Origin: Nanobdellota archaeon
GTDB lineage: Archaea > Nanobdellota > Nanobdellia > Woesearchaeales > DATDXC01
Reading direction: 5' to 3'
DNA length: 64,000 nucleotides
NCBI GenBank assembly: GCA_043818675.1
Contig: JBDRFR010000069.1
Coordinates: 14,877 to 78,876, forward strand
The position numbers were made by a program, and so were the translations under genes. The notes below the pieces were generated by a model that worked only from the letters and a program-made list of their open reading frames with translations, made no database searches and was not told the DNA's origin. This document shows, piece by piece, positions 2,701 through 63,196 of this stretch (the stretch's first letter is position 1; every line of letters begins with the position of its first letter).

Positions 2701-2881
2701 TAAAGAGATACAAGTGCTAAAGCTAAGAAAAAAAGGGTTAAAACAGATAGAGATAGCAAAAGCGCTGAATATTTCCCAGCCTGCTATATCATCTTTTGAA
2801 CAAAACATTGCCCGCAAGATAAGATCTTCAGTTGAGGTATTAGGATTAGTCAAAGAGCTGGGCATTGATATTGAAAAATGA
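2690..2881 (+). CDS. Tfx-type HTH DNA-binding protein, tandem paralog (63 aa)
   Basis: 'FTDKEIQVLKLRKKGLKQIEIAKALNISQPAISSFEQNIARKI' is clearly paralogous to 2482..2700. Its stop overlaps the start of the 751-aa gene by 4 nt (ATGA), indicating an operon. Confidence 0.5.
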   Translation: MFTDKEIQVLKLRKKGLKQIEIAKALNISQPAISSFEQNIARKIRSSVEVLGLVKELGIDIEK

Positions 2882-5133: not shown

Positions 5134-5200
5134 GGCAAATACATATAAATTACAATATACAACTTAGTATGTACATATATACAACTATAGGTGAGAGGAT

Positions 5201-7225: not shown

Positions 7226-7535
7226 GGAAATTAAAATGAGTAGTAGGCCCGTCTATCCTACTGACCGTATCAAAGGCACGGGGTTCGTCAGGACCTGTTC
7301 CTCAATGAGTAATAAGATTATGGGGCATATAAAATTTTTGGAAAAAATGGATGGATTTAATGTAAACTGTTTAAAGAAAATTATGCCACGATTCTGGGAA
7401 AAAAATGTCTCTATGATGGGAACTAAAATAGGTCTCGATATTGGGAAAAGTTTTGGATTTTTTGAATTGGTTTTAGAGTTTATTAAGGTTGGATTAAGTT
7501 TATTTTGCATAAAAGAGGTTGATTATGGCTGCTAG
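7218..7535 (+). CDS. hypothetical small protein (105 aa) overlapping the start of the giant gene
   Basis: ORF with a GGTGAGG Shine-Dalgarno-like motif upstream. No motifs. It overlaps the giant ORF start by 17 nt. Confidence 0.2.
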   Translation: MVKEIKMSSRPVYPTDRIKGTGFVRTCSSMSNKIMGHIKFLEKMDGFNVNCLKKIMPRFWEKNVSMMGTKIGLDIGKSFGFFELVLEFIKVGLSLFCIKEVDYGC

Positions 7536-37500: not shown

Positions 37501-40500
37501 AATTATAATACAACTTTTTCAGTGCCTACGACAAACCTGGGTGCTGTAATTATAAAAGTTAACATCACTTCAGCTGACAACCTCTATGCATCAAACCAGT
37601 CCGCAGTCACTTTATGGGCTGAAACCATTTTAAATTACACAGCGTCTGCTGATTATTCTGGCACTGTAACAAACTTCACTGTTACAGCCAATTTTGTGCG
37701 TACAGATACAAACACATCTGTCCCCGGAACCTTCAATATTACTATACACAATAACAGCCTAAGATATTACAGGGACTGTAACGGAACTTTATGTATTAAT
37801 TCATTCCTTGTGCCTGGCAGCGTTATCTGGGGTAATTACAGCTTTAATATAACAGCGACTAACATATCTGGTTATTATCATAATGCTTCTGTAAATTTTA
37901 CAGCAATGTTAGAATATAAGAGCACCACTGCTTCGGTCCTTAACTCTAAAAACAAGACTATCATTGATTTTGCAACAGGTTCAACTTATGTATACTATCA
38001 TAACATTACAATTGTCAATTTAGGCAATGCAACAATGAACAATGCTTACGCTCTTGCTGACTTATCCGATCTGGATTTTGATTCTATTGTTAACACCTCA
38101 AGCTGCGGCAATATTCCCCCTAAAAGCAGCTGCAACCAGTCGTTTGCCTTAACTCTTAATTCAAACTCCGAACCTGACGTAAAACTTATCATTTGGAGGG
38201 TAAACCACACCAATAACGACGGCTCGTACTCAAAATCTTCAAATTCTGTCAGGATGACCACCACAATTGTTGGCGCAGTCATAATGGACACATCCACTGG
38301 TTTGATTGACCAGGACATAGAACATGGCCAGTCAGTTAGTTCAGGTTTTGCAATTCAAAGTAATGGTAATCTGGTCCTAAGCAGTGTTGCTGTAGAGCTT
38401 ATAAACGACACTATGCCAAGCTCTTGGTTTAGCTTCACCGGTTCTACGAGTTTTGGCACGATCCCGGCAGGCCAGACAGGCACGGTTACATACTCAATTA
38501 CTATCCCAGAACATTACGCTCCTGGCACATATAATGCAACCATAAACGTAACTGCATCAAACCATAATGAAACATACATTAAGGTCAACATTACCGTTCC
38601 TCTAAATGGCACATGGATTATCAGCGGGGATATCGGTAAGACCACAAATTTCACCCAGAATCTTAATGGCACTGTTGGCAATCTTACGCTCAGCAATCTG
38701 GGCAATATTGAGATGAATTTCAGCATATCCTACTTGCCTGGCGGAAGCAGGCTATACACTGATTTTGGCAGTGATTTATTCCAGGAAAACCAAGCTGGGT
38801 ACAATCCCACCTGGCTGAATATACCAAAAAATACAAGCAGGAATCTCAGCATTTTCCAGAAAAGCTGGTCAAGCAGCTTATCAGATGTTGGCATTAACAT
38901 TTCCATCATTAATTTAAGCGGCACCCCTACAAACAGGAGCATCTATATGGTGTTTAATATTAAAGATGATCCACCTGTTGTTGAAGCCATGTTTTACCTT
39001 GTAAACAATTCCGTCCAGAATTACACTGAATTTAACAAGTCTATTACCATAAAAGCAACTGTAACTGACGACATTGATATTGAACATACCACAAGCAACT
39101 CATATTTCAATGTTAGCTACTATGGAGATTATACAGTTATCAACGCTTCATTTACCGAGTACAGGTACGATAGCGGTTATAAGGAGATAAATTTCACAGC
39201 TAACTTCACACCCACAACGATAGGAGCCCACAATGTCACATTAACTGTCAAAGACAGCGCTTCCCAGATTACAAGATATTCAGGCTACAATTTCACCTCA
39301 ATCGGCAACACTTCCGTCAATATTACATTTAATCTATCAGTCGCCCAAATAACCCAAATAACCCAAAGATTAAGCAAGAATATTACAGTTAATATCACAA
39401 TCAAAAATACTGGATTTGTAAAAGCATATTATAACAATTTAACATGGATTTTACCTTCGGGGTGGTCGATTTATCCAACATTTGACTATTTATCAAGCAT
39501 ATCTTCCGGTGCATCAAAATCAAAGCTTTTCAACTTATCAATCCCTATAGCTACCAGTCCAGGATTATATACAATAACGGCAATCACTAACTGGACAAAT
39601 CCGATAAAAACAAGAAATAGCACTACTGAAACCTTCAGGATAAATGTAACATCCAATAAAATCCTGAATTTAACCATTAACAATAAGACAATAACAATAA
39701 ATCATAGCTCTCAGCGGTCGTATGTGTTTGGTGTGAATGCTACAGGAAATGATAATTTGACCAATGTAAATATAAGTTGTATATCCGGTGAGGTATGCAA
39801 TTTCACAATATCCTATAATAATTCCTTATTTAACGTTAGTGCTGGTTCAGTTATTTATGTAAACACTACAATTACTGTCCCGGAATATCAGGCTCCGGCC
39901 AACTACACCGGAATCTTCAATGTTTCCACAAACAGCTCAAACTCAAAGACTATAAATTTAACAGTGGAAGTGCCTGCTGACGAAACATGGAATATTAGCA
40001 TAGCCACTATTTCAAAAAGTGTCGGCGCTTTAAACTCAGGTATTGTCAGCAAATTCAACATAACAAACAATGGCAACATTATGATAGGTTTCAAGCTTAA
40101 CACCACGAACAACACTATTATTAGTCTTAACGCAACCAGTATAACCGTCCAAAAAAACAGTACAAGTGAAGTATTGATAAGTTACAGCTCACCACAACAG
40201 GCAGCTGATTATATAATCGTTATTATGATCACTAATAATTCTCTGTCGCAAAGGCAGCGCAATTTAACAATTAATCTAACTGTACTTCAGTTCCAGGTAA
40301 ACATAACTTATCCATTAAATATATCTCCGTTAACTAACATTACAGCAAACCAAAACATAACAATAAACGCCACAGCCTATTATATCAATGAAAGCTTGTC
40401 TGAAAATGTGACATGGGCTGTTAAATTTAATGATAGTGTATGCAATGTTTACAATTATACGTACATTAACAGCGTATGGCAGGTCAGGTGCACAACCCCT

Positions 40501-43500
40501 GACATAGACGACGGCAAATACTATTATCTTAAGCTCACTGCTAATTATACAACCTTAAACAATGCATTGACTGACACTGAACCCAACGCTATTTTATACC
40601 GTGACGTCACCGCTCCAACCATCATTTCAAAGAATAAGAAGAACATTGCGCCAGGTAGTGACGTGAACCTAACATTAAACATTACTGACAATGTTAATGT
40701 TTCAACTGTCATTGCTCAGCTGACCTATCCAAATATCACAGGCAATATATCCACCATAATTAATTATACAGCCTCCTATACAAACGGATTATATATTATC
40801 AGCTTATATGATTTGGTCCATATAGGCGATTATGATATTACATACTATATTAATGATACAACAGGCAATTCCCTAACCGACACAGACAATTTCGAGGTTT
40901 ATTTGATAAAACCCAGATTTTCCGGAACCATATCTGACTATCAGGGTAATGGTGTGCCATCTTTTTGGGAATTTTATAGGTCAAACACCTCTACCCTTCT
41001 CACGAATATAACGACTAACTCAACAGGAAGATACAATAGCGGAGATATTCATAACCGGACTTATGACCTTAGAATTAGCGCTCTTGGCCATAAAATAATC
41101 ATTAAAAATCTGAACTTCACAACAATTAAAAATGACGCAATAGACCTTGATTTGATTATTGGCACTGACATTGACACAATTATTACTAACTACAGGCCGT
41201 TAAAAGGTATCGGTGTTAATACAACCTTTAATGTAAGCTATGTCAACTTCACGATTAATTATAGCGGCACAAGTCCTGTATCAGAAACAGGCATAAAGAT
41301 TTTTAGATGTTCAAACTGGTCTTATAAGGTCAGAATTTGCGATAACACCTGGACAGAATTAAACAGCACTGTTTATGTTAGCAGGGATATAGTAATCGCT
41401 TCTTCTTCAGGATTTTCTGCATATATAGCTGCCGAGCTAAAATGCGGCAACGGCATATGCGAAGAGATATACGGTGAAACTTCAGCAAACTGCGCAGCTG
41501 ACTGCATAACAGCCCAGGGTCCAGCTTCAATTTCTGTTAGCAGCGGTGGTGGCGGTGGTGGCGGTGGCGGAGGCAGCGGACTGTCAAAAGAAGACTTAAG
41601 AGCTGAATTAGAAGCATTAAACTTGCTAAACATTACTGATAAGATTGAAGATATTGTCAAAGCCACAAAAAAACTGGCAGGTGTAGAAATGGCGACCACC
41701 TCGATATATAAGGAGCTTTTCCCAAAAGAAGACGCCTCAGCAAGGATTAGGATGCGAAACACTCTCGATACCAACATCAGATTAAACACCAAAGTTGAAG
41801 GCGCTGTAAAAGATTTTGTATTCTTTGAAAATTATGCAGTAACTCTTTCAGGCGGTGAAGAAAAAGACATTATAGTAAGAATAACCATCCCGCAGTTTAC
41901 AAAACCTGGATCATACGATGGTGACATTATTTTAATGCGTGACAATGAAGAGGTCAGGATCCCGACGACCATTAGAGTTTTACAGGAAGAAGGAAAACTT
42001 TTAGACGTCAAAATCCAGCCGTTAGTAGACTCAATCTCGCCTGGCGAAACTCTGCTTCTTCGAACAGACTTGATAAACCTTGGTAAGACTAAACGTGTGG
42101 ATGTCCAGTTTAAGCTGCAATTAACCGACCCCAGGACAGGTGAAATACTAAAAGAAACAGAAGAGGCATTTGCAATCGAGACATCACTAACAACAACAAA
42201 AGAACTTGAGATTCCAAAAGAGATCAAATTAGGCAAATATTTAGTTCAGGGCACTGCATATTATAGCAGTCTTGAAGACCGTAATCAGGAAGCAGTATCT
42301 ATTGCAACCATAAACATCCAGCAGCCATTTTTAGAAAGGGAATTTTTAGGCATTAAGAATGAAAGTTATATGTTCGGATTTATTATAGCTTTAGCATTGA
42401 TTGCACTGTTTATTTTCTACACATATAAGCAGAAAAAGAAGAAACGGTACATTAAGGTAATAGATCTTAAAACTTTGCCAAAACCCGGAAAGAATTCTGG
42501 ATTTATCGGTAAGATAGCAGAAACAGGCATTAGGACTTTCATTGACATTAACAAGCTTCAGACACATACACTTATAGCTGGCGCAACAGGCAGCGGTAAA
42601 ACAATAGCTATCCAGGACATTATCGAAGAGTCTCTTTTAAAAGGCATCAGTGTGATAGTCTTTGATCCTACTGCTCAATGGACCGGCTTTTTAAGAAAGT
42701 GTAAACAGCCGTCTATGTTAAAACGCTACAGTTATTTTGACATGAAGCCAAAAGACGCAAAAGCTTTCAAAGGCAACATCAGGACCATTACAAATCCGCG
42801 TGAGATTATTGAAATTAAGCAATTCATGGCTTCAGGTGAGATCACAATCTTTAACACAAGCAATCTCGAGCCAAAAGAGATGGACATTGTAGTAGCATCG
42901 ACTGTCCAGCAAATATTCAAGGCAAACCTAGAGGAAAGCCCTGACCTAAAAACTCTGATAGTCTATGACGAAGTTCACCGGCTGCTTCCAAAATTCGGCG
43001 GCAGCGGCAAAGGCTTTATACAGGTTGAAAGAGGCGTTAGAGAATTCAGGAAATGGGGTGTTGGCATTGTATTGATAAGCCAGGTGCTCAGCGACTTCAT
43101 CGGTGAGATCAAAGCTAATATAGGCACAGAGATCCAGTTAAGGACCCGTTACGAAAACGATCTCGAAAGGATCAGCATGAAATACGGTGAAGATATTCAA
43201 AAATCTATTGTAAAGGCCGCTGTAGGAACAGGTATGATCGTCAATGCTGAATATAACCATGGCCGCCCATATTTCGTCAGTTTCCGGCCAATACTTCATT
43301 CAATAACAAAAATAAATGACAAAGACCTTGCTAGTTATACACAATACGCAAAACGCACAGAGGATATTACTTACCAGCTTGAACAATTAAAACTTTTAAA
43401 TGTTGACATATTTGATTTAGAATTAGAGCTGAAGTTGTCCGATAGTAAAATTCGTTCCGGCCAGTTTGAAATGGTCGAGATTTACCTAAAATCTCTTGAG

Positions 43501-43857: not shown

Positions 43858-44919
43858 ATGAAACAAAACATGGTCCCGCCGGATATTGAACAGTCCTCAG
43901 ATGAGGAAGTAATTGAAGAAGAGTCTGTTGAAGAAAGGGCCGATATATCAAAAGAAGTAGCATTTGAAAAATTAAAAACCCAGCTTGAATCATTAAACCA
44001 GGTAAGGGAAACCAATAATGAGCGATTTTCAAGGATTAGTGAGCAAATAGGTGAAATTCGCAGCATGGTTATTGAAAACGAGAAGAATATGCGTGATGTT
44101 AGTATTAAAGCCACAATGGCCTCTGATTCTGTTAAAGAAGTAAAACCAGAAATTTTAGGGACCCAGGTAAGAAAAATCGACATGAAGGTTGAAACATTAA
44201 AACAAAAAATTGAGGCTAAAAACGTAATGGACAATATGATCATGCAGGAGCTTAAAGAACTGAGAGCAAAAATTAACCTTTTCAAAGGAACTGACGCAGT
44301 TTTAAGCCTTAACGAAGAAGTAAAAAATGAACTAATCAATATCTCCAAAATTAAAAATTCTGTTGAGATTCATGCAGACAAGGTTGAACAGGTTTTCGTC
44401 CATATTCAAAAGAACTTTGTAGAATTCGAAAAATTAAAAAGCCAGAATGAAAATATGCTGGCTGTAAGTTCAGCATTGCAAAAACAAGTAAATGGCCTTC
44501 AGACTCAATTAAAAACCATATCTACAAAAGATGATTTAAGCAGGTTTCGCAAAACCATAAACGATAACCTTAGCTCTATTAATAAATTCTCAAAAAATTT
44601 AAGAAAAAATAAGCAGCTGATAACTTTGCTAAAAAAGATAGAATTTCGTCTTCAAAGCATGGTTTTTGATAATAAAAAAAAGATCGGCGAATTAAAAGAG
44701 GAAGACGGAACAATAAAAAGCAGCATAGCAGAAATTGACTGTCATCTTAGCACTTTGTCAAAAAAAATAAAAAGCGCTACTCCAAAAAATCATATTAAGC
44801 ATGTCAAAAAACACTTCATGCTCCATAAGAAAAAATCAGGGATCATATTAAAAACTCTTGAAAAAATTGAAAATAAATTTTTTAGATGGTCAAAAAAATG
44901 TCAAAAGAAGAAGTTATAA
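43858..44919 (+). CDS. coiled-coil protein (353 aa)
   Basis: Acidic N-terminus, then heptad-rich K/E/L/Q sequence throughout. Starts 43 nt after the giant ORF stop. Confidence 0.5.
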   Translation: MKQNMVPPDIEQSSDEEVIEEESVEERADISKEVAFEKLKTQLESLNQVRETNNERFSRISEQIGEIRSMVIENEKNMRDVSIKATMASDSVKEVKPEILGTQVRKIDMKVETLKQKIEAKNVMDNMIMQELKELRAKINLFKGTDAVLSLNEEVKNELINISKIKNSVEIHADKVEQVFVHIQKNFVEFEKLKSQNENMLAVSSALQKQVNGLQTQLKTISTKDDLSRFRKTINDNLSSINKFSKNLRKNKQLITLLKKIEFRLQSMVFDNKKKIGELKEEDGTIKSSIAEIDCHLSTLSKKIKSATPKNHIKHVKKHFMLHKKKSGIILKTLEKIENKFFRWSKKCQKKKL

Positions 44920-51785: not shown

Positions 51786-52526
51786 CTACGTTAATTCTAC
51801 ATAAAAGTAATAAACAGTTGACGCATCATCATCTCCGTTATCTGCAACCAGCATCTGAAAATCCCATATATTTCCGTCAAACCCTACTGTATTTTGGCTG
51901 ACTTCTGTTGCATATATCACTGTATTCTGATTATATTCTGTAAGTATTGTTTCATTAAAATAACTGGTCTGCGCCCCATTATTATCATACGTATTTGTTG
52001 AACGGCAGTTTAGGAGCTCCCTTGTACCGATTGTAATATTGCTGTATCCTCTGAAAGTCTCATCTATTCCGTCACTATCAGAGCTCGCCATGCCGTACAT
52101 TGACTCAAGCGTTGTATGATTGATTCCCTGTGTTCCAATAGAGCCATTGCCGCTAAAGTTTACACAATTAACATTGCCCCAATCTACTACCGTATTGTTT
52201 GCAGCATATATTTCACCGACCGGAGAAAAGCTTGAACCACCTGTCCAATCAAACATTGTATTGCCGCTTGCATCACCAAGGACAACTTTTCCGGAGATAT
52301 TACCATAGTATCCCTGCCATCTTTTTGTAACAATTGTAGTATTAATTGTAAGTTGCGTTACATTGCCTGCCTGTGCTCCAAGAGCCTGCGGATCCCCTGT
52401 TATATTAGTTCTGCTCGTAGTAACATTTTCAATAGAAGTAGGGCCATATGGATTGGCTAGAGTGATAGGTATTAAAATCGCTGCCACTAATAAAATTATT
52501 GCAATTCTTTTCATTGTTGTTTTCAT
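51786..52526 (-). CDS. secreted ~245-aa protein, paralog 4 of a tandem array
   Basis: Signal peptide 'MKTTMKRIAIILLVAAILIPITLA'. Conserved core 'RWQGYYGNISGKVVLGDASGNTMFDWTGGSSFSPVGEIYAANNTVVDWG.V.CVNFSGNGS.GTQGINHTTLESMYGM...DGIDETF...NCRSTNTYDNNGAQTSYFNETILTE...TVIYATEV.Q...GFDGN.WDFQMLVADNGDD.ASTVYYFYVEL'. Confidence 0.75.
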   Translation of the reverse strand: MKTTMKRIAIILLVAAILIPITLANPYGPTSIENVTTSRTNITGDPQALGAQAGNVTQLTINTTIVTKRWQGYYGNISGKVVLGDASGNTMFDWTGGSSFSPVGEIYAANNTVVDWGNVNCVNFSGNGSIGTQGINHTTLESMYGMASSDSDGIDETFRGYSNITIGTRELLNCRSTNTYDNNGAQTSYFNETILTEYNQNTVIYATEVSQNTVGFDGNIWDFQMLVADNGDDDASTVYYFYVELT

Positions 52527-52722
52527 TATAGCAAAGGACGTATTTTTACGAATAGCTGCATATCCTCAACAAAAGTGCATTATGTCCGCTATCATATCTG
52601 AAAACAATCACGCTTTCGTTTACATTCACATTTAATTACGTTTACGTTCACAATCCAAAGTAAGCATGAAGGATCTAAGGCAGTTGCCAAAATGTTTTAG
52701 ACACACCCTTAGTCCGTTGAAT

Positions 52723-53460
52723 TTATGCAAGTTCAACATAAAAGTAATATGCTGTCGCAAGTCCGTCACTGCCGTCATCAGCGACGATCATTTGAAAATC
52801 ATAGCTATTGCCATCAAAACCAGTTGCATCCTGGTCAACTTCTGTTGCAAAAATTACAGTCCCTTGAGATCTTTCTGTTAAAAGAGTCTCATTAAAGTAA
52901 GTGCTTTGAGCGCCATTATTATCGTATGTATTTGTTGCATGGCAATTCTGAAGCAGTGTTCCGGCTATTGTAATGTTATTCAAAGTACTAAACGTTTCAT
53001 CAATACCATCATTATCAGAACTTACCATACCAAACATAGATTCAAGTGCTGTTTGATTGATTCCTTGTGTTCCCACAGAACCGTTTCCGCTAAAATTAAC
53101 ACAGATAACATCACCCCAGTCCACAATTGTGTTGTTTGCAGCATAAATTTCTCCAATTGGTGAAAAGCTTGAATCAGCAGTCCAATCATACATTGTATTG
53201 CCGCTTGCATCACCTAAGACCACTCTTCCAGAAATATTACCAAAATAACCTTGCCAATTGCCGGTTGCTTGTGAGATATTAATCTCAAGTTTAGTATTAT
53301 TCCCTCCGTACGCGCCCAGACCCTGCGGAGCTCCCGCACTCGTATTGGTTTTATAAGTAGTTACATTTTCAATGGTTGTTGGCCCCCACGGTGCTGCTGT
53401 TACAACTGAACATAATACACTAATCACTAATAATCCTATGAGTAATATTCTCGTTGTCAT
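52723..53460 (-). CDS. secreted ~245-aa protein, paralog 3
   Basis: Signal peptide. Same conserved core, ending 'AYYFYVELA'. GGAGGAAT Shine-Dalgarno-like motif upstream. T-rich run after the stop. Confidence 0.75.
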   Translation of the reverse strand: MTTRILLIGLLVISVLCSVVTAAPWGPTTIENVTTYKTNTSAGAPQGLGAYGGNNTKLEINISQATGNWQGYFGNISGRVVLGDASGNTMYDWTADSSFSPIGEIYAANNTIVDWGDVICVNFSGNGSVGTQGINQTALESMFGMVSSDNDGIDETFSTLNNITIAGTLLQNCHATNTYDNNGAQSTYFNETLLTERSQGTVIFATEVDQDATGFDGNSYDFQMIVADDGSDGLATAYYFYVELA

Positions 53461-53588
53461 TTTATTCCTCCATAATTACGCTTTCATTTACATTTGCGCA
53501 TAACAAAAATTATGCATGTTCAGCATAAAACTATATTCTTGTCTTCGTTTTTACCCTCATCAATTAAGTTGTGTAGGCATAACAAAAA

Positions 53589-54332
53589 TTATGCAAGCTC
53601 AACATAAAAGTAATAAGCTGTCGCAACTCCATCGCTGCCATCATCAGCAACAATCATCTGAAAGTCCCACTTGTTACCATCATATCCGGTAGCATCCTGG
53701 TCAACTTCTGTTGCAAAAATCACAGTCCCCTGCGATCTTTCTGTCAAAAGTGTTTCATTAAAATAAGTGCTCTGAATGCCGTTATTATCATACGTATTTG
53801 TGGCCCGGCAGTTCTCAACCATTGTTCCGGCTATTGTAATATTATTTATGCCAGTAAACGTTTCATCAATTCCATCTGTGTCTGTCGCACCCATACCATA
53901 CATAGATTCAAGTGTTGTATGATTAATTCCTTGCGATCCAATAGAGCCATTACCGCTAAAATTGACACAGATAACATCACTCCAGTCCACAATTGTTGCA
54001 TTAGCTGCATAAATTTCACCTATTGGTGAAAAGCTTGAACCAGCTGTCCAGTCATACATAGTATTGCCGTTTACATCACCCAAGACAACTTTTCCGGAAA
54101 TGTTACCAAAATAACCCTGCCAATTGCCCGTTGCTTGTGAGATATTAATTTCAAGCTGAGTATTATTCCCTCCATGTGCGCCAAGCGCCTGTGGAGTGCC
54201 GATACTCGTATTAGTTTTATAAGTAGTTACATTTTCAATGGATGTTGGCCCCCATGGTGCAGCCATCACAACCGAACATAATACAGTTATTACAAACAAC
54301 CCCAAAATCATTATTCTGATCTTCATTTTCAT
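53589..54332 (-). CDS. secreted ~245-aa protein, paralog 2
   Basis: Near-identical at nucleotide level to paralog 1 over long stretches. Signal peptide 'MKMKIRIMILGLFVITVLCSVVMAAP'. GGAGGAAATG upstream. Confidence 0.8.
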   Translation of the reverse strand: MKMKIRIMILGLFVITVLCSVVMAAPWGPTSIENVTTYKTNTSIGTPQALGAHGGNNTQLEINISQATGNWQGYFGNISGKVVLGDVNGNTMYDWTAGSSFSPIGEIYAANATIVDWSDVICVNFSGNGSIGSQGINHTTLESMYGMGATDTDGIDETFTGINNITIAGTMVENCRATNTYDNNGIQSTYFNETLLTERSQGTVIFATEVDQDATGYDGNKWDFQMIVADDGSDGVATAYYFYVELA

Positions 54333-54367
54333 TTCCTCCTTTTTATAATTTCAATTCATAACAAAAA

Positions 54368-55120
54368 TTATGCAAGCTCAACATAAAAGTAATAAGCTGT
54401 CGCAACTCCATCGCTGCCATCATCAGCAACAATCATCTGAAAGTCCCACCTGTTACCATCATAACCAACAGTATCCTGGTCAACTTGCGTTGCATAAATT
54501 ACTGTGCCTTGCGTCTTTTCTGTCAAAAGTGTCTCATTAAATTTGGTGGTTTGAACACCATTACTATCATATGTATTGGTCGCCCAACAGTTATCAATCA
54601 ATGTTCCAGCTATTGTAATGTTATTAATGCTGTTAAACGTTTCATCAATTCCATCAGTATCTGCTGCAAGCATACCATACATGGATTCAAGTATTGAATT
54701 GTTAATACCTGGAGGATTTGATCCATCAATAGAGCCGTTTCCAGTCAAGTTAAGACAAATAACGTCACCCCAGTCCACAATTGTTGCATTAGCTGCATAA
54801 ATTTCACCTATTGGTGAAAAGCTTGAACCAGCTGTCCAGTCATACATAGTATTGCCGTTTACATCACCCAGGACAACTTTTCCAGAAATGTTACCAAAAT
54901 AACCCTGCCAGTTACCCGTTGCTTGTGAGATATTGATTTCAAGCTGTGTATTATTTCCCCCGTGTGCGCCCAGCGCCTGTGGAGTGCCGACACTCGTATT
55001 AGTTTTATACGTAGTTACATTTTCAATGGATGTTGGCCCATACGGCGCAGCCATCACAACCGAACATAATACAGTTATTACAAACAACCCCAAAATCATC
55101 ATTCTTATCTTCATTTTCAT
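54368..55120 (-). CDS. secreted ~250-aa protein, paralog 1 (start trimmed from the track ORF 54368..55228 to the Met aligned with the other paralogs)
   Basis: 'MKMKIRMMILGLFVITVLCSVVMAAPYGPTSIENVTT' aligns with the paralog 2 start. AAGGAGGAA lies immediately upstream of 55120. The upstream 36 codons of the track ORF lack a signal peptide. Confidence 0.75.
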   Translation of the reverse strand: MKMKIRMMILGLFVITVLCSVVMAAPYGPTSIENVTTYKTNTSVGTPQALGAHGGNNTQLEINISQATGNWQGYFGNISGKVVLGDVNGNTMYDWTAGSSFSPIGEIYAANATIVDWGDVICLNLTGNGSIDGSNPPGINNSILESMYGMLAADTDGIDETFNSINNITIAGTLIDNCWATNTYDSNGVQTTKFNETLLTEKTQGTVIYATQVDQDTVGYDGNRWDFQMIVADDGSDGVATAYYFYVELA

Positions 55121-55248
55121 TTCCTCCTTTTTTAAATTTTTAATAATGTGTAAGCAAAAAAAAAGGGATTCAAGGCAGAAATCAAAAAGACGTGCGAGGT
55201 GTTTTAGATGTTCCCCTTGTTCTCCCAATTAATATAATACTCTAAATT

Positions 55249-56096: not shown

Positions 56097-58421
56097 TTAT
56101 TTATACAGGCTATCTTCAATAACTGCGATTGTATCTTCTTTTGTTTTTGCTGCTCGGAGTTTTTCTGCTGTCTCTTTATCTGACCCCATGATCCAGTCTG
56201 CAAAAATATTTTCAGATTCAGATGCATGCGCTGCATACGTTCCTTCATCCATAGTATTGATTTCATCAATCAATTCCTGCGGCGATGATACGGTAACTCC
56301 GTTCTTAAGCTTCAATGGTGGCAGCTTTTTTTGTTCTTTTTTCTTTTCTTGTTTTGCAGCTGCTTTTTTTGCCTCTTCTGGATGTTCTTTTTCGAATTTT
56401 TCCCTTTCTTTTTTAGCCTTTTCAAATTCTTCCTGCAATTCTTTTTCAGAAACAAGCTTCAGTTTTCTCTTCTTAGCTTGTTTGCCAATTTTATCCCATG
56501 CAGTGTCAAGCCTAGGTTTTAAGCCTTCCAGATAAATATCAACCATGTTAAAACTGCCAGACTTAACTTTATCAAGCGCCATCTTAAGTTCCAGTTTTAG
56601 ATCAAAAATATCAACCTCTTCCTCTCTAAGCTGTTCAATCTGATCATCCAGATCGTCTATTATATCATTATACTTATTGTAATTATCAAGTTCTTCGTCT
56701 GTTAATCTTGCATGTTCATGTAAAAGAGGCCTAAAACTTACAAAATAAGGATTGCCTCTGTTATATGCAGAATTTGAAATCATCCCTGTGCCTGTTGCAG
56801 ACTTCAGTAGAGATTGCAGCATGTAAGACCCATATTTATCTTTTATCCTGTTCAAATCGCCTTCATCACGTGTACGCATTTGAATTTCTGTATTAATATT
56901 TGCTTTTGTTTCACCTATAAAATCTGTCAGAACCTGGCTGATCAACACAAGGCCGACCCCCCATTTTCTAAATTCTCTTGCGCCTCTTTCAATTTGGATA
57001 AAACCCTGTCCGGTTCCGCCGAATTTTGGCAGCAGTCTGTGAACCTCGTCAAAAATTACAATAAGCCTTAATTGCGGGCTTTCTGGCAGGTCGGCGTGAA
57101 ATACTTCTCTGATTGTATTGGCTACAAGTATATCACTGTCTTTGGGATCAAGTTTATTGATAGCAAAAACGTGAATTTCACCAGGAATTAAGTATTTTTT
57201 TATATCAATGATCTGGCGAGCATCCATAATCTGGTGCACATTCCCGTTAAATGCTCTTGCATCCGTTTTCTTGAGTCCGTAACTAGGATACAAAGCTATC
57301 ATTTTTTTATTCGTGCATTTTCTAAGAAAGCCTGTCCACTGCGCTGTTGGGTCAAACACTATAATCGCAACTCCTTTTAACAGCGCTTCTTCTACAAGAA
57401 CTTCCGCAGAAACTGTCTTTCCACCGCCTGTTGAACCGGCAATTAGGCTGTGAATTGTCAGCTGATCCATATCAAAATACGCTTTAACTTTTGATTCAGC
57501 AATTTTTCCGATAAGAATCGACCGCTCGCCAGGTTTTGGCAGCAATTTAAAGTCAATTTTACCTTTATATCTTTTCTTTTTAGCAAGCCTTTTGCGTATT
57601 ATTAAAAATACTAATGCAGCTATTGCAAGAAAAGATAGTGTTAATAACAGCCATCTCACAGGCATTATCCCAAAAATCAGATAATCCCATATCGGTTCAC
57701 TTACTAAGAATCTCGCGCTTGCAGTTGATGATATCCCCAGATAATCCACGCGAGCTGTAATTACATACTCACCCGGTCTGATAAATTCAGGTACTTCAAA
57801 AAATTTTATAAGAGTTGTTGACTTATTAAGTCTTAAGTTCTCAGTTTCTTCCAGAAAAGTTTTGTTGACCAGATAAGTTTTTTTATCTGCCATGCTGTCA
57901 ATCGAATAATGCAAAGTAATATTAAATCCATCTTTCAATAAAAGATTATGAATATTAATCTTATACCTTAAAGTATCCTTAAGATATACTCTTTCTGATA
58001 ATGGCTCAACTTTGATAGAAATTGCGCTAATAGGAACTCCGCTAATATCCCCTACTGTTAGCATTGCAGGTATTCTTTCATTGACATTTCCGGATAAGAC
58101 TAATGTTCCGTTAAAAAAACCCATGTTATCAGCAAAAAATAAAATTTTGGCATCTGCACTTGATTTTGCCTCAAGATTAATAGTCGTCACATCAGGCACC
58201 ATATAACTGCTGATGTTGCCCTCTGATGAAAACATTACCGTTATTGGATTATCGCCTTTATTTTCAATGGTAAGCACATGCTCTTCGAATTTGCCTATTT
58301 TAACATTTTTAATTATTATATCATCCGATATTCGATAATTGCTATTTTCAATTTGTGCAGCAACATTTATAGACATTAATATTACTATTATTACTATCGC
58401 AAAACCTCTATTTTTTATCAT
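56097..58421 (-). CDS. membrane protein: extracellular beta-sandwich domains, one TM helix and a cytoplasmic HerA/FtsK-superfamily ATPase (standalone paralog of the giant protein's C-terminal module)
   Basis: Signal peptide 'MIKNRGFAIVIIVILMSINVAA'. Two Ig-like domains. TM 'VRWLLLTLSFLAIAALVFLII' followed by 'RKRLAKKKRYK'. Walker A 'LIAGSTGGGKT', 'IIVFDPTAQWTGFLRKC', Walker B 'LIVIFDEVHRLLPKFGG' and 'REFRKWGVGLVLISQVLTDF' are collinear with giant aa ~11330-12098. K/E-rich tail. Start overlaps the stop of the 1342-aa gene by 4 nt. Confidence 0.8.
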   Translation of the reverse strand: MIKNRGFAIVIIVILMSINVAAQIENSNYRISDDIIIKNVKIGKFEEHVLTIENKGDNPITVMFSSEGNISSYMVPDVTTINLEAKSSADAKILFFADNMGFFNGTLVLSGNVNERIPAMLTVGDISGVPISAISIKVEPLSERVYLKDTLRYKINIHNLLLKDGFNITLHYSIDSMADKKTYLVNKTFLEETENLRLNKSTTLIKFFEVPEFIRPGEYVITARVDYLGISSTASARFLVSEPIWDYLIFGIMPVRWLLLTLSFLAIAALVFLIIRKRLAKKKRYKGKIDFKLLPKPGERSILIGKIAESKVKAYFDMDQLTIHSLIAGSTGGGKTVSAEVLVEEALLKGVAIIVFDPTAQWTGFLRKCTNKKMIALYPSYGLKKTDARAFNGNVHQIMDARQIIDIKKYLIPGEIHVFAINKLDPKDSDILVANTIREVFHADLPESPQLRLIVIFDEVHRLLPKFGGTGQGFIQIERGAREFRKWGVGLVLISQVLTDFIGETKANINTEIQMRTRDEGDLNRIKDKYGSYMLQSLLKSATGTGMISNSAYNRGNPYFVSFRPLLHEHARLTDEELDNYNKYNDIIDDLDDQIEQLREEEVDIFDLKLELKMALDKVKSGSFNMVDIYLEGLKPRLDTAWDKIGKQAKKRKLKLVSEKELQEEFEKAKKEREKFEKEHPEEAKKAAAKQEKKKEQKKLPPLKLKNGVTVSSPQELIDEINTMDEGTYAAHASESENIFADWIMGSDKETAEKLRAAKTKEDTIAVIEDSLYK

Positions 58422-61400
58422 TTTGACAGTTTCTCTCTCAACTCACCGCATTTCTTAATAACTTCTGATTTATACTCCGGAACAATTTTTTTGTAAATCT
58501 CATTGACTTTGTGATAAATTTCAACTGCTTCAGTTCGCTTATTATTTTCCAATTTGGATATGGCTTTGTCAATAAGGCTCTTGATATGAAACACATCCAG
58601 TTTATATGATAATGCCACAACACTTTGATAGACTTCTTTTCTCATCTCCTTTGGAAGTTTAGAATATGAACTCTGTGAATCCAGATATAGCGATTTGGCC
58701 CGATCATATTTCCCGTCATTAAGCTCTTTTTTAGCATTTTCAATGTTATTTTTTATACTGTCAACATTCTTTAAAGATGCCCGATCCAGAATATGATATT
58801 TAATATTAGTTCCTTTTAGAGTATAACCAAGGTACAAAAGTACAAGAATAATTATAACAAAAACCTCAATAACAATCCGTCTATCGCTTGTCGTAACGAA
58901 TTTTGACTTAAGATTATCGATTACTGCAAACCCGGTAATTGGCGAGAGTTCTGGTTTTTGGCCAGGATCCATAATCACAGAAACTGTAGTTTGTATTTTT
59001 TCCAGCTCAATTTCATCTTGAACGTAATAAGCAATACTTTCCGCTTCTTCTAAGCTAAGCTCAATAATGGGATCTTCTTCAATTACACTGTATTCAAACA
59101 TAAATTCAATATCATTAACGCTTTCTGCTATTTCTTTTGGGATATATTCAATCATAATATATCCATTCGAATCCAAGTCCAGGCTAAAAGCTTTTTCAAC
59201 CAGTGTATATCTCTCTTTATCATTGGATAAATATTCCAACTCAACCACAAAAGCTTTGGTTGTGACTGTCAGAAGTGATTGAAGTTTAGAATTTTGCTCA
59301 ACTACATTATTAATTTCCCTTTTTGTATATTTCTTATTTTTTTTATTCAAATACGCTAATGTTAGATTCCTGATCTCTTCTGCCTTAGGATACACAACAA
59401 ACTCCTTTGAGTCCAGAACTTTCAGGTCGGTGGGTATTGCATCCCGGATATTTGCGATTTCTGCATATATTGCATTTTCTTCCTTTTCATACTCAGTATC
59501 ATTCAGTTTTCTCCATATTAGATTGTTTAAGTCTCTTTTATATCGTGTAAGTTTAACTTTTGATTTGTCAAGTTTGACAAAAATCCCAAGAATATCCATA
59601 ACCTCTTTTTCAGTTTTGCCCTTTTTTTGAAATTCCTGATAAATTTGGTCAATTTTTGAGATCAGCGGATCAATCTCTGTGTTATCCTTATTTAACGTTT
59701 TCCCGAATAAATAAACAATAAATGTCCTTGTAGAGCTTATCTCAGAATTTCCGTGTTCATCTGTGCATTTAATTCTATACTCATAGCTTCCATTCTGAAG
59801 AGAAGTTATGCTAAATTTGTTCTCAGAGCCTTTTAAAACATTGCTTTGGCTCTCCTTTTCTATCCACCAGCTGCTATGTTCATTGATATTAAGCGCGCAA
59901 TCCACATTAGACTGATCTTCCACTCGATACAATATTTCAACACTGGTTCCTTCAATTCGCTGTTGGTCTGGTGGATTTAACAATGTTACAACAGGCCCTT
60001 TTTTGTCATTTGTATCAATTGACAAATTCACATAAAGAGTTGTATCCGCAAAAACTCTTACACTATCGTTTATATAAGTATTATAGCCGTCATGTTTCAC
60101 TTTTAATTTATACGTGCCGTAATACACCAAAAAACTGGTTTTGCCTTCCGATGTTGTATTCTTGATAACAGTATCAAACTCTACATCAGCATTTCCCACA
60201 TTTTGTTTAGAGACATTATTAACAATGATTGTAACATTGAACCTTTTTTTGACAATGATTGTTTCAATATCTGATGCCTTTTGCGCGCTGTCTGTTACAG
60301 TTAGGTTTACTTTATAAGTTCCATTTGTTGCATATGTTTTTACAAGTTCAGATGAATAGCTGTCAATAGACTTATCATTTGAAATATCCCATTGATAGGT
60401 AAGTGATCCTGTATGCCCGCTTACTATCGGAACAAATTTAACAGTTTCCCCTTCATTTATTGTGGTTTTATTGGCGCTGATCTGCACGCTGAGCGTTGAT
60501 GTGGGTGGATAAACAATAAAGCTTACTATTTTACTTTCACTATTTCCTTTGTAATACGATGTTGCATTCAGGGTATATGTGCTAGGCGAATTAATATTAT
60601 CAAGAATAGTTGTTACGTATATTGGATAATCCGAAGAATAGCCGGTTATTGACTTCCTGCTTACAACAGATCCGCCTGTTTTAACAGTCATATTGACTAT
60701 AGAATTCGCTCTTGATATGATTGTTGCTGCGATATCTTCACCTAATTCATAATTACTTTTATCCAGACTAATTGAAAAGCCTACACAATTGCCGCATTGT
60801 CCGCCGCAATCAATGCCTGTTTCACCACCGTTTTTAATACCGTCTAAACACGTTGCAGAATAACTAAAACTAAAAGAATAGCTGTATAGTTGATTATTGC
60901 CCTGCATATCAGTAGCATTTATTAAAAGAATATTTGCACCTGTCTTTAATTCCAATGTGATTGATTTTTCTTTGCCAAAATATGCCTCAGTGCTGTACTG
61001 TCCATTATTCAACTTATATGAGATAAACGCATATTCATTTGGCCGCAGCTTTAGATTGGTAATATTGCTGGAATTAGTTACTACACTATTATTCACAGGA
61101 ATGCTATTATAAGTTAGGTTTATTTTAGGAGCCGCATCATCATTAACGCTAAAACTATAATTGTATGTCAATATATTGGAATTATTATCATTAAGGCTGA
61201 TTGTTACAATATGTGCACCATTTTCAATCACGCCATTAGAAAAGCTGCCATTAAGTAGCACTGAAAAAGTTTTTGACTCAGGCAATGCTGCATATCTCTG
61301 ATTTTTAAACGATATATTTGCATATACAGGGATATCAGTTGAAAAGTTCAGATAAACATTTTCCCCGCATTTCAAAGGGCTGACGGGTGAATTGATTGTC

Positions 61401-62446
61401 AAATTTAGTTCAGACATATTAAGCGCCACAATTATTGATGAAAAGTGTGAAACATATACTTCCAGCTTATCTCCATTTTTGTGATAGCATCCTTGCGCTC
61501 CAAAATCACATTCAGGCAGTTTAACACATTCAAACGAGTCTGAACAATGCAGAACTTGGTTATAGATAATTCCCGTTATATTAAATTCCACGCGTCCCTG
61601 GTATCCTTCCTCAAGTATAACTTTCTCGATACCGCTAACTTCTATCGACTTTCGGACTATTGATCCCAAATTTTCAATATGATTTCTTAAATTCTCATCT
61701 TCTTTACTGATAGTTATTTTATCCAACTCTTCAAATTGAATATTATTGCTCTTAAAATTTTCAATACTGACAATATCACCTCCGTGGTACATATCCAGCC
61801 TCAGGTTTTGATTATGAAAATCTGATACAGCCGAACCCCCCTTTAAGTCTGTAAGTGAGATTTTACTAAGCTTATTATTTTTCTTCAGCCTCTCCAGTTT
61901 TTCAATCACAGAAAATTCTTTACTCGAAGGCTGCTTTCCATTAAAATAATCTTCATCAAGAAATACCGCATATAGATAATCATAATTACTGTAATATATT
62001 TCTGAATAGGGGTTTTCTGAGCTTACCGAATAATCAACATATAATACTCGCGCGCTCACCTTATTATTAACCGACGCATCATATTGCCCGTAATTAAGAT
62101 AAAAAATATCATTCCATTTATTCTTAGTTGCAGTAAGTCCAATAAAATTACAGCAAACATTGTTCCCATAACAAACTGTTGTCATTTTGTTTGTATCAAC
62201 GGACAATATTTCCCATCTTGTGCACAGCTTATTTTTGTTAAGATCCCAGTTGAACTCTGTATCTTCAACAGTAAAGTCAATTACACTTTTATCACCTTCA
62301 ACCCCGTCAGAATTATTGTCATAATATTTATCATTCTGATATTTAAGATTAATCTGAATTTTTTCAGATTCTGCGCAAATTACAGAAAGATTAAGCGCTA
62401 TCATTAGTAAGATTAGACAGCCCAAAATCTTAGAGTATTTCTTCAT
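58418..62446 (-). CDS. large surface protein (1342 aa): Cys-rich N-domain, Ig-like/PKD domains, C-terminal TM and cytoplasmic helical tail
   Basis: Signal peptide 'MKKYSKILGCLILLMIALNLSVICA'. 'NKLCTRWEILSVDTNKMTTVCYGNNVCCNFIGL...FYLNYGQYDASVNNKVSARVLYVDYSVSSENPYSEIYYS' is paralogous to the 751-aa protein's N-domain. PKD motif 'SLTYQWDISNDKS...TYATNGTYKVNLTVTDSAQ'. Cys cluster 'CLDGIKNGGETGIDCGGQCGNC'. TM 'VIEVFVIIILVLLYLGYTL'. Confidence 0.8.
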   Translation of the reverse strand: MKKYSKILGCLILLMIALNLSVICAESEKIQINLKYQNDKYYDNNSDGVEGDKSVIDFTVEDTEFNWDLNKNKLCTRWEILSVDTNKMTTVCYGNNVCCNFIGLTATKNKWNDIFYLNYGQYDASVNNKVSARVLYVDYSVSSENPYSEIYYSNYDYLYAVFLDEDYFNGKQPSSKEFSVIEKLERLKKNNKLSKISLTDLKGGSAVSDFHNQNLRLDMYHGGDIVSIENFKSNNIQFEELDKITISKEDENLRNHIENLGSIVRKSIEVSGIEKVILEEGYQGRVEFNITGIIYNQVLHCSDSFECVKLPECDFGAQGCYHKNGDKLEVYVSHFSSIIVALNMSELNLTINSPVSPLKCGENVYLNFSTDIPVYANISFKNQRYAALPESKTFSVLLNGSFSNGVIENGAHIVTISLNDNNSNILTYNYSFSVNDDAAPKINLTYNSIPVNNSVVTNSSNITNLKLRPNEYAFISYKLNNGQYSTEAYFGKEKSITLELKTGANILLINATDMQGNNQLYSYSFSFSYSATCLDGIKNGGETGIDCGGQCGNCVGFSISLDKSNYELGEDIAATIISRANSIVNMTVKTGGSVVSRKSITGYSSDYPIYVTTILDNINSPSTYTLNATSYYKGNSESKIVSFIVYPPTSTLSVQISANKTTINEGETVKFVPIVSGHTGSLTYQWDISNDKSIDSYSSELVKTYATNGTYKVNLTVTDSAQKASDIETIIVKKRFNVTIIVNNVSKQNVGNADVEFDTVIKNTTSEGKTSFLVYYGTYKLKVKHDGYNTYINDSVRVFADTTLYVNLSIDTNDKKGPVVTLLNPPDQQRIEGTSVEILYRVEDQSNVDCALNINEHSSWWIEKESQSNVLKGSENKFSITSLQNGSYEYRIKCTDEHGNSEISSTRTFIVYLFGKTLNKDNTEIDPLISKIDQIYQEFQKKGKTEKEVMDILGIFVKLDKSKVKLTRYKRDLNNLIWRKLNDTEYEKEENAIYAEIANIRDAIPTDLKVLDSKEFVVYPKAEEIRNLTLAYLNKKNKKYTKREINNVVEQNSKLQSLLTVTTKAFVVELEYLSNDKERYTLVEKAFSLDLDSNGYIMIEYIPKEIAESVNDIEFMFEYSVIEEDPIIELSLEEAESIAYYVQDEIELEKIQTTVSVIMDPGQKPELSPITGFAVIDNLKSKFVTTSDRRIVIEVFVIIILVLLYLGYTLKGTNIKYHILDRASLKNVDSIKNNIENAKKELNDGKYDRAKSLYLDSQSSYSKLPKEMRKEVYQSVVALSYKLDVFHIKSLIDKAISKLENNKRTEAVEIYHKVNEIYKKIVPEYKSEVIKKCGELREKLSK

Positions 62447-62748
62447 TTACTAGCCTCAATCTTAAGTTGATTTTTGATCTCATTTAATTCACTGACCACT
62501 TTCTTAGTGACTTCTTTTTCACTCTTTTTTCTAATTTCATCCATGATATCCTTTCTTAATCTTGCAACCTCTGCAAGTTCTGGATACATCGATTTTAGCC
62601 AATTTTTTCTGGTAATGCTCCTAATCTTTTCACTAACGTCCATATAGTGCTCTTTTTCAGCGAGCTCTTTAAGTTTAGACAATAATGATTCAGGCATCCT
62701 TACAGAAACCAGGACATCACTCAAACAAATCACCCTTATCACAAACAC
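62443..62748 (-). CDS. small RHH/CopG-like DNA-binding protein (possible operon regulator; true start may be the internal Met)
   Basis: 'VRMPESLLSKLKELAEKEHYMDVSEKIRSITRKNW' shows a beta-strand plus two-helix RHH pattern. Its stop overlaps the start of the 1342-aa gene by 4 nt. Confidence 0.4.
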   Translation of the reverse strand: MFVIRVICLSDVLVSVRMPESLLSKLKELAEKEHYMDVSEKIRSITRKNWLKSMYPELAEVARLRKDIMDEIRKKSEKEVTKKVVSELNEIKNQLKIEASK

Positions 62749-63196
62749 TGTCTCTGGAAAATTCCCTGATAGCTTCAGCTCTGCTTTTATATACCCCTTT
62801 AGAAACCATATAATCCAGCCATTCCACTATTTCTTTTGACAATCTTATGTTAAAAATAGCCACTTTCATTTTGTATTCACAATGATATTTATTGTATGCC
62901 CCTTGTATTTTAATTAATCATTTAAATATTTTTCGGTATTATTACAAACGATTAGTTAAATTAAGAGATAATTTGTAATTGAAATAATACTTATATGTAT
63001 GTTATATGTAATTCAAATAAAGATTATATAAACCTTTTGATTTTAGATAAATTCCAACATATTAATCAAATTATTAATCAAATAAATAAATTAAGTAATT
63101 AATAAATCAGTTAATTATAATAAAAATTTTTCATATGAATATTGAAATTCATCAAATATACATAATTTTAAATATTAGATAACCCTAACAAGCTTA
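62749..63196. promoter_or_regulatory. divergent AT-rich intergenic region between the minus-strand surface-protein operon and the plus-strand genes
   Basis: About 450 nt, extremely AT-rich, with repeated 'aattaat/attaatcaaat' motifs. No ORF and no tRNA-like GC stems. Confidence 0.3.

Follow-up and report, generated by a model that had tools for sequence, protein, structure and literature searches.

A translationally coupled surface protein and membrane-anchored HerA-like ATPase in a DPANN archaeon, and their relation to a giant paralog

Genes and gene products of the operon

We analysed 64,000 nt of DNA (hereafter the window) from a Nanobdellota archaeon of the Woesearchaeales, taken from contig JBDRFR010000069.1 of assembly GCA_043818675.1 (positions 14,877 to 78,876 of the forward strand). 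On the minus strand of the window lies an operon of four genes, which encode two small ribbon-helix-helix (RHH) proteins (RHH1 and RHH2), a surface protein of 1342 residues (S, or S1342) and a membrane-anchored ATPase of 774 residues (A). The plus strand holds a giant open reading frame (ORF) of 12,098 codons, whose C-terminal module is paralogous to A. The features are collected in Table 1. The gene content of the window is archaeal, with an eRF1-family protein, an RFC-like AAA+ protein, an M50 protease and a rhomboid, and no tRNA genes were found in it. The ATPase is identical to MFH1642052.1, annotated as 'MAG: DUF87 domain-containing protein [Nanoarchaeota archaeon]'.

Direct reading of the sequence showed that S and A share an ATGA overlap ('...tcaaaATGAtaaaa' at 58418-58421), and that RHH2 and S are joined in the same way ('...agtaaATGAagaaa' at 62443-62446). 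An earlier annotation of the window, made from the letters and a list of ORFs (the sequence-only reading), had placed the RHH2, S and A frames and both 4-nt overlaps at these positions, and the ORF list and sequence confirm it. It had described one small RHH-like gene before S; such a gene is present and overlaps S, but there are two of them and not one. The RHH1 protein begins MKVAIFNIRLSKEIVEWLD..., and the tandem RHH1-RHH2 pair is kept in many related loci. Comparison with RHH2 orthologs, whose N-termini start '..D(V/A)LVS(V/I)RMP', puts the probable start of RHH2 at the TTG at 62724, which would leave an overlap of 8 nt with the RHH1 stop. RHH2 has an RHH-like fold plus a C-terminal helical extension. 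It should be noted that both window copies score below the RHH_1 gathering cutoff of 20.5 bits (Pfam). The RHH1 orthologs at the same operon position all pass this cutoff (27.6-39.7 bits, n=5), and four of five RHH2 orthologs match RHH_1 at 17-20 bits, just under it and in the same register.

The S protein starts with an N-terminal signal and a Cys-rich N domain, contains a PKD domain, and ends with one transmembrane (TM) helix and a cytoplasmic tail in which a helical repeat (the S-tail repeat) occurs twice. The signal peptide, PKD domain and C-terminal TM helix named by the sequence-only reading agree with the Pfam match and the topology. Residues ~555-1340 are homologous to the S proteins of operons with longer ATPases, and this conserved region covers the PKD/immunoglobulin (Ig) part, the membrane-proximal region, the TM helix and the cytoplasmic tail; as judged from these sequence relationships, S is a genuine protein family. 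The Cys-rich N domain is limited to the S proteins of short-ATPase operons (type 1) and to a 751-aa ORF upstream of the giant, which aligns with the N domain of S1342 at 48.5% over 136 aa (BLASTP, E=3.6e-39). The 751-aa ORF is without the C-terminal TM helix and tail of S, and is not matched by a hidden Markov model (HMM) of that tail (S_Ctail).

For the ATPase we used an AlphaFold2 (AF2) model, which like our other models is of moderate confidence (for A a mean predicted local distance difference test score, pLDDT, of 75.8). It consists of a signal-like N-terminal helix, beta-sandwiches at residues 29-124 and 134-241 and a TM helix at 255-282, followed on the cytoplasmic side by a RecA-type ATPase core (300-565), long helices (575-696) and a small helical C-terminal domain. 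The hydrophobic segments of A lie at residues 4-22 and about 248-282, and the positive cluster 'RKRLAKKKRYKGK' follows them; A is anchored N-out/C-in by one TM helix. In its ectodomains A is similar to adhesins and pilus chaperones, which have Ig/PapD/ASH-like domains in tandem.

A RecA-like core, Walker A and B motifs and a fold like that of HerA, VirB4 and FtsK place A in the FtsK-HerA superfamily, and the residues of Walker A 'AGSTGGGKT' and Walker B 'FDEVH' are invariant across 22 diverse sequences. HerA is the nearest relative both by sequence and by fold, DptH/DndH giving the second-best fold, and VirB4, TrwB and EccC are structural neighbours. The best NCBIfam match is CedD NF053655 (8.8e-9; 34.6 bits against a cutoff of 600), where the Walker A region alone aligns. 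The NCBIfam HerA models NF040819 and NF040937 gave 23.6 against 970 and 31.4 against 800 bits, and among the models of type IV secretion systems (T4SS) TraC gave 25.4 against 567, TraD 27.6 against 366 and Pfam TrwB_AAD_bind 19.1 against 20.5. The AF2 model has no HAS-barrel and no other domain between the TM helix and Walker A, the helix lying ~20 residues before the core. NurA, Mre11 and Rad50 were not found among the window genes, nor were T4SS partner families among the window ORFs. The PADLOC models that match the ATPase domain of A are mad8 (2e-15) and several for anti-phage HerA; beyond noise, nothing matched S, the RHH genes or the downstream genes d247 and d210. As all NCBIfam scores are far under their cutoffs, and as A has neither a HAS-barrel nor a NurA gene nearby, we conclude that A forms a membrane-anchored branch of its own within the HerA clade, and is not a HerA repair helicase, a T4SS ATPase or a member of the Ced system.

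Table 1. Positions of the features discussed (in the window unless another locus is named; nt, with strand)
Feature	Position	Strand	Remarks
RHH1, 50 aa, first operon gene	62717..62869	-	read from the sequence; RHH_1 19.5 bits
RHH2, 101 aa from first GTG (maximal ORF)	62443..62748	-	RHH_1 19.1 bits, residues 14-43
S, 1342 aa, single-pass surface protein	58418..62446	-	
S, Cys-rich N domain	61958-62365	-	residues 28-163
S, PKD domain	60254-60487	-	residues 654-731; 44.1 bits against cutoff 23.5, E=2e-11 (Pfam)
S, TM helix	58811-58885	-	residues about 1188-1212
S, cytoplasmic tail	58421-58810	-	two helical repeats 'Yxx(I/V)xxxYxxLPxExKxxVY'
A, 774 aa, membrane-anchored HerA-like ATPase	56097..58421	-	
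A, Ig/ASH-like beta-sandwiches	57687-58355	-	
A, TM helix	57594-57668	-	
A, ATPase	56727-57524	-	
A, coiled-coil helices	56334-56699	-	
A, DUF5752-like domain	56100-56324	-	
Giant, 12,098-aa ORF	7519..43815	+	
Giant, C-terminal module, paralogous to A	41683..43815	+	two beta-sandwiches, TM residues 11615-11633, ATPase, coiled coil
g353, coiled-coil cytoplasmic protein, directly after giant	43858..44919	+	conserved partner of long-type ATPases
751-aa secreted or anchored protein, upstream of giant	2878..5133	+	shares Cys-rich N domain with S1342
Pol-beta/MNT-type nucleotidyltransferase	5701-6303	+	
310-aa protein	6293-7225	+	IS1-like zinc-finger N-terminus
d210, ArsR-like winged-helix regulator, 210 aa	55249..55881	-	NCBIfam HTH_metalloreg 5.5e-6
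d247, four tandem secreted ~245-aa beta-sandwich paralogs	54368-55114, 53589-54332, 52723-53460, 51786-52526	-	whole d247 region 51786..55228
559-aa ORF, partial	1-1679	-	
Signal-peptide protein, partial	63585-64000	+	
Stand-alone DUF5752-like genes (examples)	L022 12838-13545, L024 12790-13668, L064 12826-13665		~40 more in related loci

Conservation of the surface protein-ATPase pair

Relatives of A occur in at least 572 stretches of GTDB species representatives, and a scan of 1.84 billion representative proteins gave 382 clusters at 50% identity (E<=1e-30). The homologs are nearly confined to DPANN archaea of the Woesearchaeota/Nanoarchaeota type, with remoter relatives in Pacearchaeota, Aenigmarchaeota and Altiarchaeota. 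Close relatives come in two main sizes, a short one of ~775 aa and a long one of ~1,200-1,700 aa that is ~45% identical to A. To describe their neighbourhoods we used the best-scoring 78 of the at least 572 loci (numbered L001 onwards), with ORFs from a crude picker that has a floor of 50 aa, and gene classes assigned by BLAST and locally iterated HMMs. Counts of S positions are restricted to loci with more than 3.5 kb upstream, which leaves 16 short and 49 long ATPases.

The recurrent gene order was RHH1 (50-60 aa), RHH2 (~90 aa), S (900-1,400 aa) and ATPase. An S gene lies directly upstream of 13 of the 16 short and 35 of the 49 long ATPases, and within three genes of 15 and 42 of them, respectively; the commonest form of the S-to-ATPase junction is the 4-nt overlap. 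Upstream of the ATPase, RHH2 was found at 12/16 short and 37/49 long genes and RHH1 at no fewer than 4/16 and 22/49, the latter being undercounts because of the 50-aa floor. A third homolog search added loci L079-L082, with ATPases of 679-1026 aa. Among these is an Altiarchaeales locus where the gene for a 1007-aa protein with a C-terminal TM helix overlaps that of a 679-aa ATPase by 11 nt; the tail of this surface protein is ~25 aa only and is not matched by the S_Ctail HMM.

It is thus strongly supported that S and the ATPase form a conserved, translationally coupled gene pair, syntenic across many species. The sequence-only reading had proposed from this one operon that surface protein and ATPase act as partners, and the synteny and coupling in the 78 related loci bear it out; an ATPase gene that goes without a surface-protein partner in other genomes, which would have spoken against the pairing, is not what the neighbourhood survey returned. 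The conserved loci sit among housekeeping genes (eRF1, RFC, M50 protease, FtsZ and tRNA synthetases). With tblastn the ATPase gave five matches on haloarchaeal plasmids, ~26% identical, and none in phages.

The giant ORF, domain fusions and flanking genes

A BLASTP comparison of A with the last 1000 aa of the giant aligned residues 101-696 with giant residues 11464-12059 (44% identity over 606 aa, E=7e-161). Giant residues 11389-11489 were further matched by an HMM built on the N-terminal beta-sandwich of short ATPases (6.5e-7, filters off), and this extends the collinearity to about residue 37 through 696 of A. The similarity goes far beyond the level of the Walker motifs, as the sequence-only reading had maintained, and the layout that it described as shared is found in both proteins from the beta-sandwich pair through TM helix and ATPase to the coiled coil. 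The DUF5752-like domain, which makes up the last ~75 aa of A, has no counterpart in the giant. Two of the three strings that it quoted as identical are so, and the third, 'FDEVHRLLPKFGG', reads YDEVHRLLPKFGG in the giant with one residue different.

The same reading took the giant for a fusion of the two components that the operon encodes separately, and regarded this as Rosetta-stone evidence. This part is not supported. S1342 has no BLAST match in the giant at E<=1e-3, the giant is without the S-tail motif and the membrane-proximal region of S, and long ATPases normally have a separate S gene of their own. Further, in the scan of 1.84 billion representative proteins the cytoplasmic module stood at the C-terminus in every case, with total protein lengths of 770 to >6,000 aa, and the family grades in length without a break, all the variation being in the N-terminal ectodomain. 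Since the module is C-terminal across this whole range, we interpret the giant as an ATPase with an expanded ectodomain and not as a fusion of the S and A genes, so that the view of a system fused in one place and split in the other is only partly right. Domain fusions do exist in the family, involving the S-tail and d247 as described below, but they are not the S/ATPase fusion that was claimed. A weaker idea of substitution is kept alive by two observations: a bona fide S, with TM helix and tail, is missing at the giant locus, and ATPases without an adjacent S tend to be longer (median 1468 vs 1315 aa).

The giant module is nearest (50-66% identity) to a third subclade (P0406-P0481), which consists mostly of gene fragments, being partial proteins on short contigs of Pacearchaeota, Aenigmarchaeota, Altiarchaeota and Hadesarchaea; giant members of the family are probably fragmented systematically in assemblies. 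Directly downstream of the giant lies g353, which ties it to the long-type ATPases. In most of the 78 loci the long ATPase has a g353 homolog after it, and homologs also follow the ATPases of the Altiarchaeales locus (L082 6771-7769; 6e-47) and of L080 (18752-19861; 5.8e-91). In database searches g353 gave weak SMC-like coiled-coil hits only. The region upstream of the giant (2878-7535, plus strand) contains the 751-aa ORF, a 167-aa ORF, the nucleotidyltransferase, the 310-aa protein and a 105-aa ORF; the genes that separate the S-like gene from the giant give the impression of an insertion.

One S-tail repeat is found at the extreme C-terminus of six out of ten long ATPases without a directly adjacent S, and in none of 36 with one (Fisher p=2e-5). 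The six are those of L008, L014, L017, L019, L020 and L055, and two further cases occur in L080. All six lack both the DUF5752-like domain and an adjacent S. This domain, with the motif 'HVNxxKNDFADW', forms the C-terminus of 55 of 56 ATPases that have an adjacent S, none of which carries the S-tail motif. It is present too, sometimes in 2-3 copies, in long ATPases and in a stand-alone gene product of 160-400 aa encoded between the long ATPase and g353 (examples in Table 1). As the two distributions are complementary, we infer that S-tail repeat and DUF5752-like domain may be a cytoplasmic connector pair.

A comparable link concerns d247. An HMM built only from stand-alone d247 proteins matches ~190 residues at the N-terminus of almost every long ATPase (1e-9 to 5e-20). 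In addition, S, short ATPase, long ATPase and g353 follow in this order in L008, L014, L017, L019, L020 and L080, where the long ATPase comes within a few genes of the short operon, mostly directly. Because short and long ATPases stand side by side in these six genomes, it seems from the gene order that the short ATPase probably cooperates with its long or giant paralog and does not duplicate it. The second ATPase gene that Reva et al. (2023) report beside nanohaloarchaeal giants fits such cooperation (PMC10266531). Long-type ATPases elsewhere carry C-terminal tetratricopeptide repeats (TPR; Pfam TPR in P0078).

Downstream of A the four d247 paralogs are 66-87% identical to each other, end in 'YYFYVELA' and have ordinary Sec signal peptides; they belong to no Pfam or NCBIfam family and have no close solved fold. 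The d210 gene follows the ATPase also in the closest relatives L001, L002 and L015. By eye we noted a T-run 'ttctattttttttattatttt' right after the ATPase stop (56070-56096, minus strand) and a 'tttatatata' box ~70 nt upstream of d210, a helix-turn-helix (HTH) gene (55950-55965, minus strand). The T-run and TATA-like box suggest that the HTH gene starts a transcription unit of its own, and that the HTH and d247 genes are separate from the operon. We considered d210 and d247 as general neighbours of short ATPases and rejected this, as they are adjacent only in the closest relatives. In L008, L010-L013 and L016 the short ATPase is instead followed by a 107-115-aa protein with two TM helices and three KaiC/ArlH-like RecA-fold ATPases of about 225, 235 and 255 aa, and the Altiarchaeales locus has one KaiC-like gene (L081/L082 6085-6762). 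Near the ends of the window, the partial 559-aa ORF contains a stretch 'IRELIQNSAAAASD ... DNGCGM' that by eye resembles a GHKL/Hsp90-type ATPase motif, and the partial signal-peptide protein, divergent from the operon, has TPR-like repeats.

Known systems and possible function

The ATPase family and the architecture of the giant are already known. The SPEARE proteins of Nanohaloarchaeota consist of a signal peptide, a huge ectodomain, a single TM helix, a cytoplasmic P-loop domain and a coiled coil (PMC6642349). Hamm et al. (2019) took the cytoplasmic domain for a type III restriction enzyme, reported short versions of 655 and 717 aa and relatives in Woesearchaeota and other DPANN, and recovered the ectodomain in a size fraction other than that of the TM-plus-cytoplasmic parts (PMC6642349). 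For the nanohaloarchaeal giants SVXNc_0300 and BNXNv_0298, which adjoin a second ATPase gene, Reva et al. (2023) proposed a VirB4/TraG-like ATPase (PMC10266531). The connection to our family runs through two relatives of A: the short ATPase of L001 (781 aa, 74% identical to A) is OIO61381.1 and the long ATPase of L052 is KYK27349.1, and as both accessions stand in SI Table S3 of Hamm et al. among the SPEARE intracellular domains (PMC6642349), family and giant architecture must be regarded as described. The 8.6-kb Guaymas contig L037 was considered as the carrier of RLG14629.1, cited by Hamm et al., and rejected since it carries RLE42698.1.

Like SPEARE, A has an N-terminal extracytoplasmic part, one TM helix and a cytoplasmic C-terminal P-loop region. 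SPEARE ectodomains, however, contain LamG or other adhesion domains, a serine protease and toxin-like regions, whereas A has only two Ig/ASH-like domains of ~100 aa each, and A is translationally coupled to the separate, conserved 1342-aa S with two RHH genes before it. From HerA itself (PDB 4d2i), the hexameric DNA translocase of archaea and bacteria that acts with NurA in end-resection, A differs by the missing HAS-barrel and nearby NurA and by its added TM helix and extracellular domains. CedD, VirB4, TrwB/TraD and EssC/EccC belong to the same superfamily, are held at the membrane, work with envelope partners and move DNA or proteins between cells. TraB of Streptomyces is a further membrane-associated transfer ATPase of the FtsK/HerA superfamily. 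The N-out topology of A with Ig-like ectodomains of its own is not a feature of the ATPases of Ced, T4SS or type VII secretion systems (T7SS), and the partners of those ATPases were not recognised here. Our literature searches returned no paper on this operon, the S family, the complementarity of S-tail and DUF5752-like domain or the d247 link. The RHH-RHH-S-ATPase operon, the S family, the pattern of S-tail and C-terminal domain, the d247 link and the assignment to the HerA clade therefore appear to be new, and the published labels of the motor, 'restriction enzyme' and 'VirB4/TraG', are corrected to HerA-clade ATPase.

Putting these observations together, we tentatively favour a reading to which we would give somewhat less than an even chance: the RHH1-RHH2-S-A operon represents one instance of a cell-envelope module conserved in DPANN archaea of the Woesearchaeota/Nanoarchaeota type, and the module works as an ATP-driven macromolecule translocase at the site of contact with the host. 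A would form a HerA-like hexamer under the membrane, and S would dock on it in the cytoplasm, its S-tail repeat binding the DUF5752-like C-terminal domain. The ectodomains of S and the ATPases might build a structure that faces the host cell and serves for adhesion or as a conduit, and ATP hydrolysis would move a macromolecule across the membrane of the symbiont, with the operon possibly autoregulated by RHH1 and RHH2. DPANN archaea lack most of nucleotide biosynthesis and depend on contact with a host. As the nearest relatives of A are DNA translocases and DPANN depend on their hosts for nucleotides, nucleic-acid uptake would be the favoured activity.

Several points weigh against a translocase. 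Its substrate, channel and oligomeric state are putative, a single TM helix in each subunit offers little from which to form a translocation pore, and the operon contains no gene for a polytopic membrane partner. In defence systems, proteins of the HerA family serve also as scaffolds that do not translocate. The connector pair is deduced from distribution only, and the model does not explain why the giant has neither the S-tail motif nor the DUF5752-like domain. The downstream context varies between HTH plus d247 and three KaiC-like ATPases, the RHH2 score lies under the Pfam cutoff, and the neighbourhood counts carry the limits of their sample and of the crude gene calls.

Other explanations were weighed against the same evidence. 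The giant could be a fusion of an S-like protein and the ATPase, with the second locus the same system in split form and a functionally equivalent duplicate. Their ATPase modules are clearly paralogous, the absence of a bona fide S at the giant locus and the greater length of S-less ATPases fit such a scheme, and the size fractions of Hamm et al. are compatible with processing into two pieces (PMC6642349). We nevertheless hold it for quite unlikely, since S1342 shows no BLAST similarity to the giant, the giant has no S-tail or membrane-proximal region, typical long ATPases keep their S, and the length continuum is in the ectodomain alone; further, a paralog of the N domain of S (the 751-aa ORF) lies upstream of the giant, and adjoining short and long ATPases in several genomes point to cooperation over redundancy. 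Export of protein effectors in the manner of a T4SS, where a VirB4/TraG-type ATPase pushes them through the surface protein into the host, is the 'straw' of Reva et al. (2023) and the published reading for the nanohaloarchaeal giants (PMC10266531). The weak Pfam and NCBIfam matches to TrwB, TraD and TraC agree with it. HerA is however nearest by sequence and fold, the T4SS scores are far below their cutoffs, neither the window nor the conserved neighbours yielded a recognisable further T4SS component, pilin or candidate effector, and the d247 proteins downstream have ordinary Sec signal peptides, all of which makes this export unlikely.

The ATPase might alternatively be the base on which S and d247-type subunits are assembled, anchored or remodelled, ATP driving assembly, extension or retraction, or inside-out signalling by an adhesin in place of cargo transport, with KaiC-like ATPases as possible modulators. 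That almost every long ATPase has d247 as its distal domain at the N-terminus, and that four free secreted paralogs are encoded next to the short ATPase here, would suit this, as would ectodomains like those of adhesins and pilus chaperones (Ig/PapD/ASH), the conserved coiled-coil partner g353, and the KaiC/ArlH-like ATPases after the short ATPase in the six loci named above and in the Altiarchaeales. But d247 adjoins short-ATPase operons only in the closest relatives and its fold has no informative match, Sec-dependent subunits need no cytoplasmic motor, and we know of no surface-filament system that uses a motor of the HerA clade; a motor of this kind is thus improbable. Highly improbable, in our opinion, is a HerA-based antiviral defence, or a module of conjugation or of a mobile element. 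Plasmid transfer modules often contain RHH proteins, the giant has HEPN/MNT-like and IS-like genes in its vicinity, mad8 and anti-phage HerA models of PADLOC match the ATPase, and DptH/DndH is the second-best fold. Against this, only the ATPase has PADLOC matches and no effector partner (SIR2, nuclease, DUF4297) accompanies it, large extracellular domains and an obligatory surface partner are unfit for a cytoplasmic defence, the synteny extends across hundreds of species among housekeeping genes, and matches are few in plasmids, at ~26%, and absent from phages. On the PADLOC, plasmid and phage results we rejected the defence-system and mobile-element readings.

How DPANN archaea attach to their hosts and take up material is an open question, for which giants of the SPEARE type are the main candidates. 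These giants are of enormous size, assemble poorly from metagenomes and are difficult to work with. The same motor exists in a compact form, as a 774-aa ATPase with a conserved 1342-aa partner, and in many species. With such a compact pair and concrete predictions of interactions, the system becomes tractable for expression, structure and interaction tests: the S-tail repeat is predicted to bind the DUF5752-like domain, d247 to be a distal ectodomain, and short and long ATPases to be paired. Going further than the translocase favoured above, we speculate that S, the short and long or giant ATPases, g353 and the DUF5752-like proteins could constitute a new apparatus for intercellular translocation, DPANN-wide and extending to Altiarchaeales, built around HerA-clade motors that have ectodomains of their own and mechanistically distinct from T4SS, T7SS and Ced, in which the modular connector of S-tail and DUF5752-like domain wires different surface proteins to motors. 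This we consider rather unlikely as it stands; if true, it would supply the machinery, long looked for, by which DNA or other macromolecules pass between symbiont and host.

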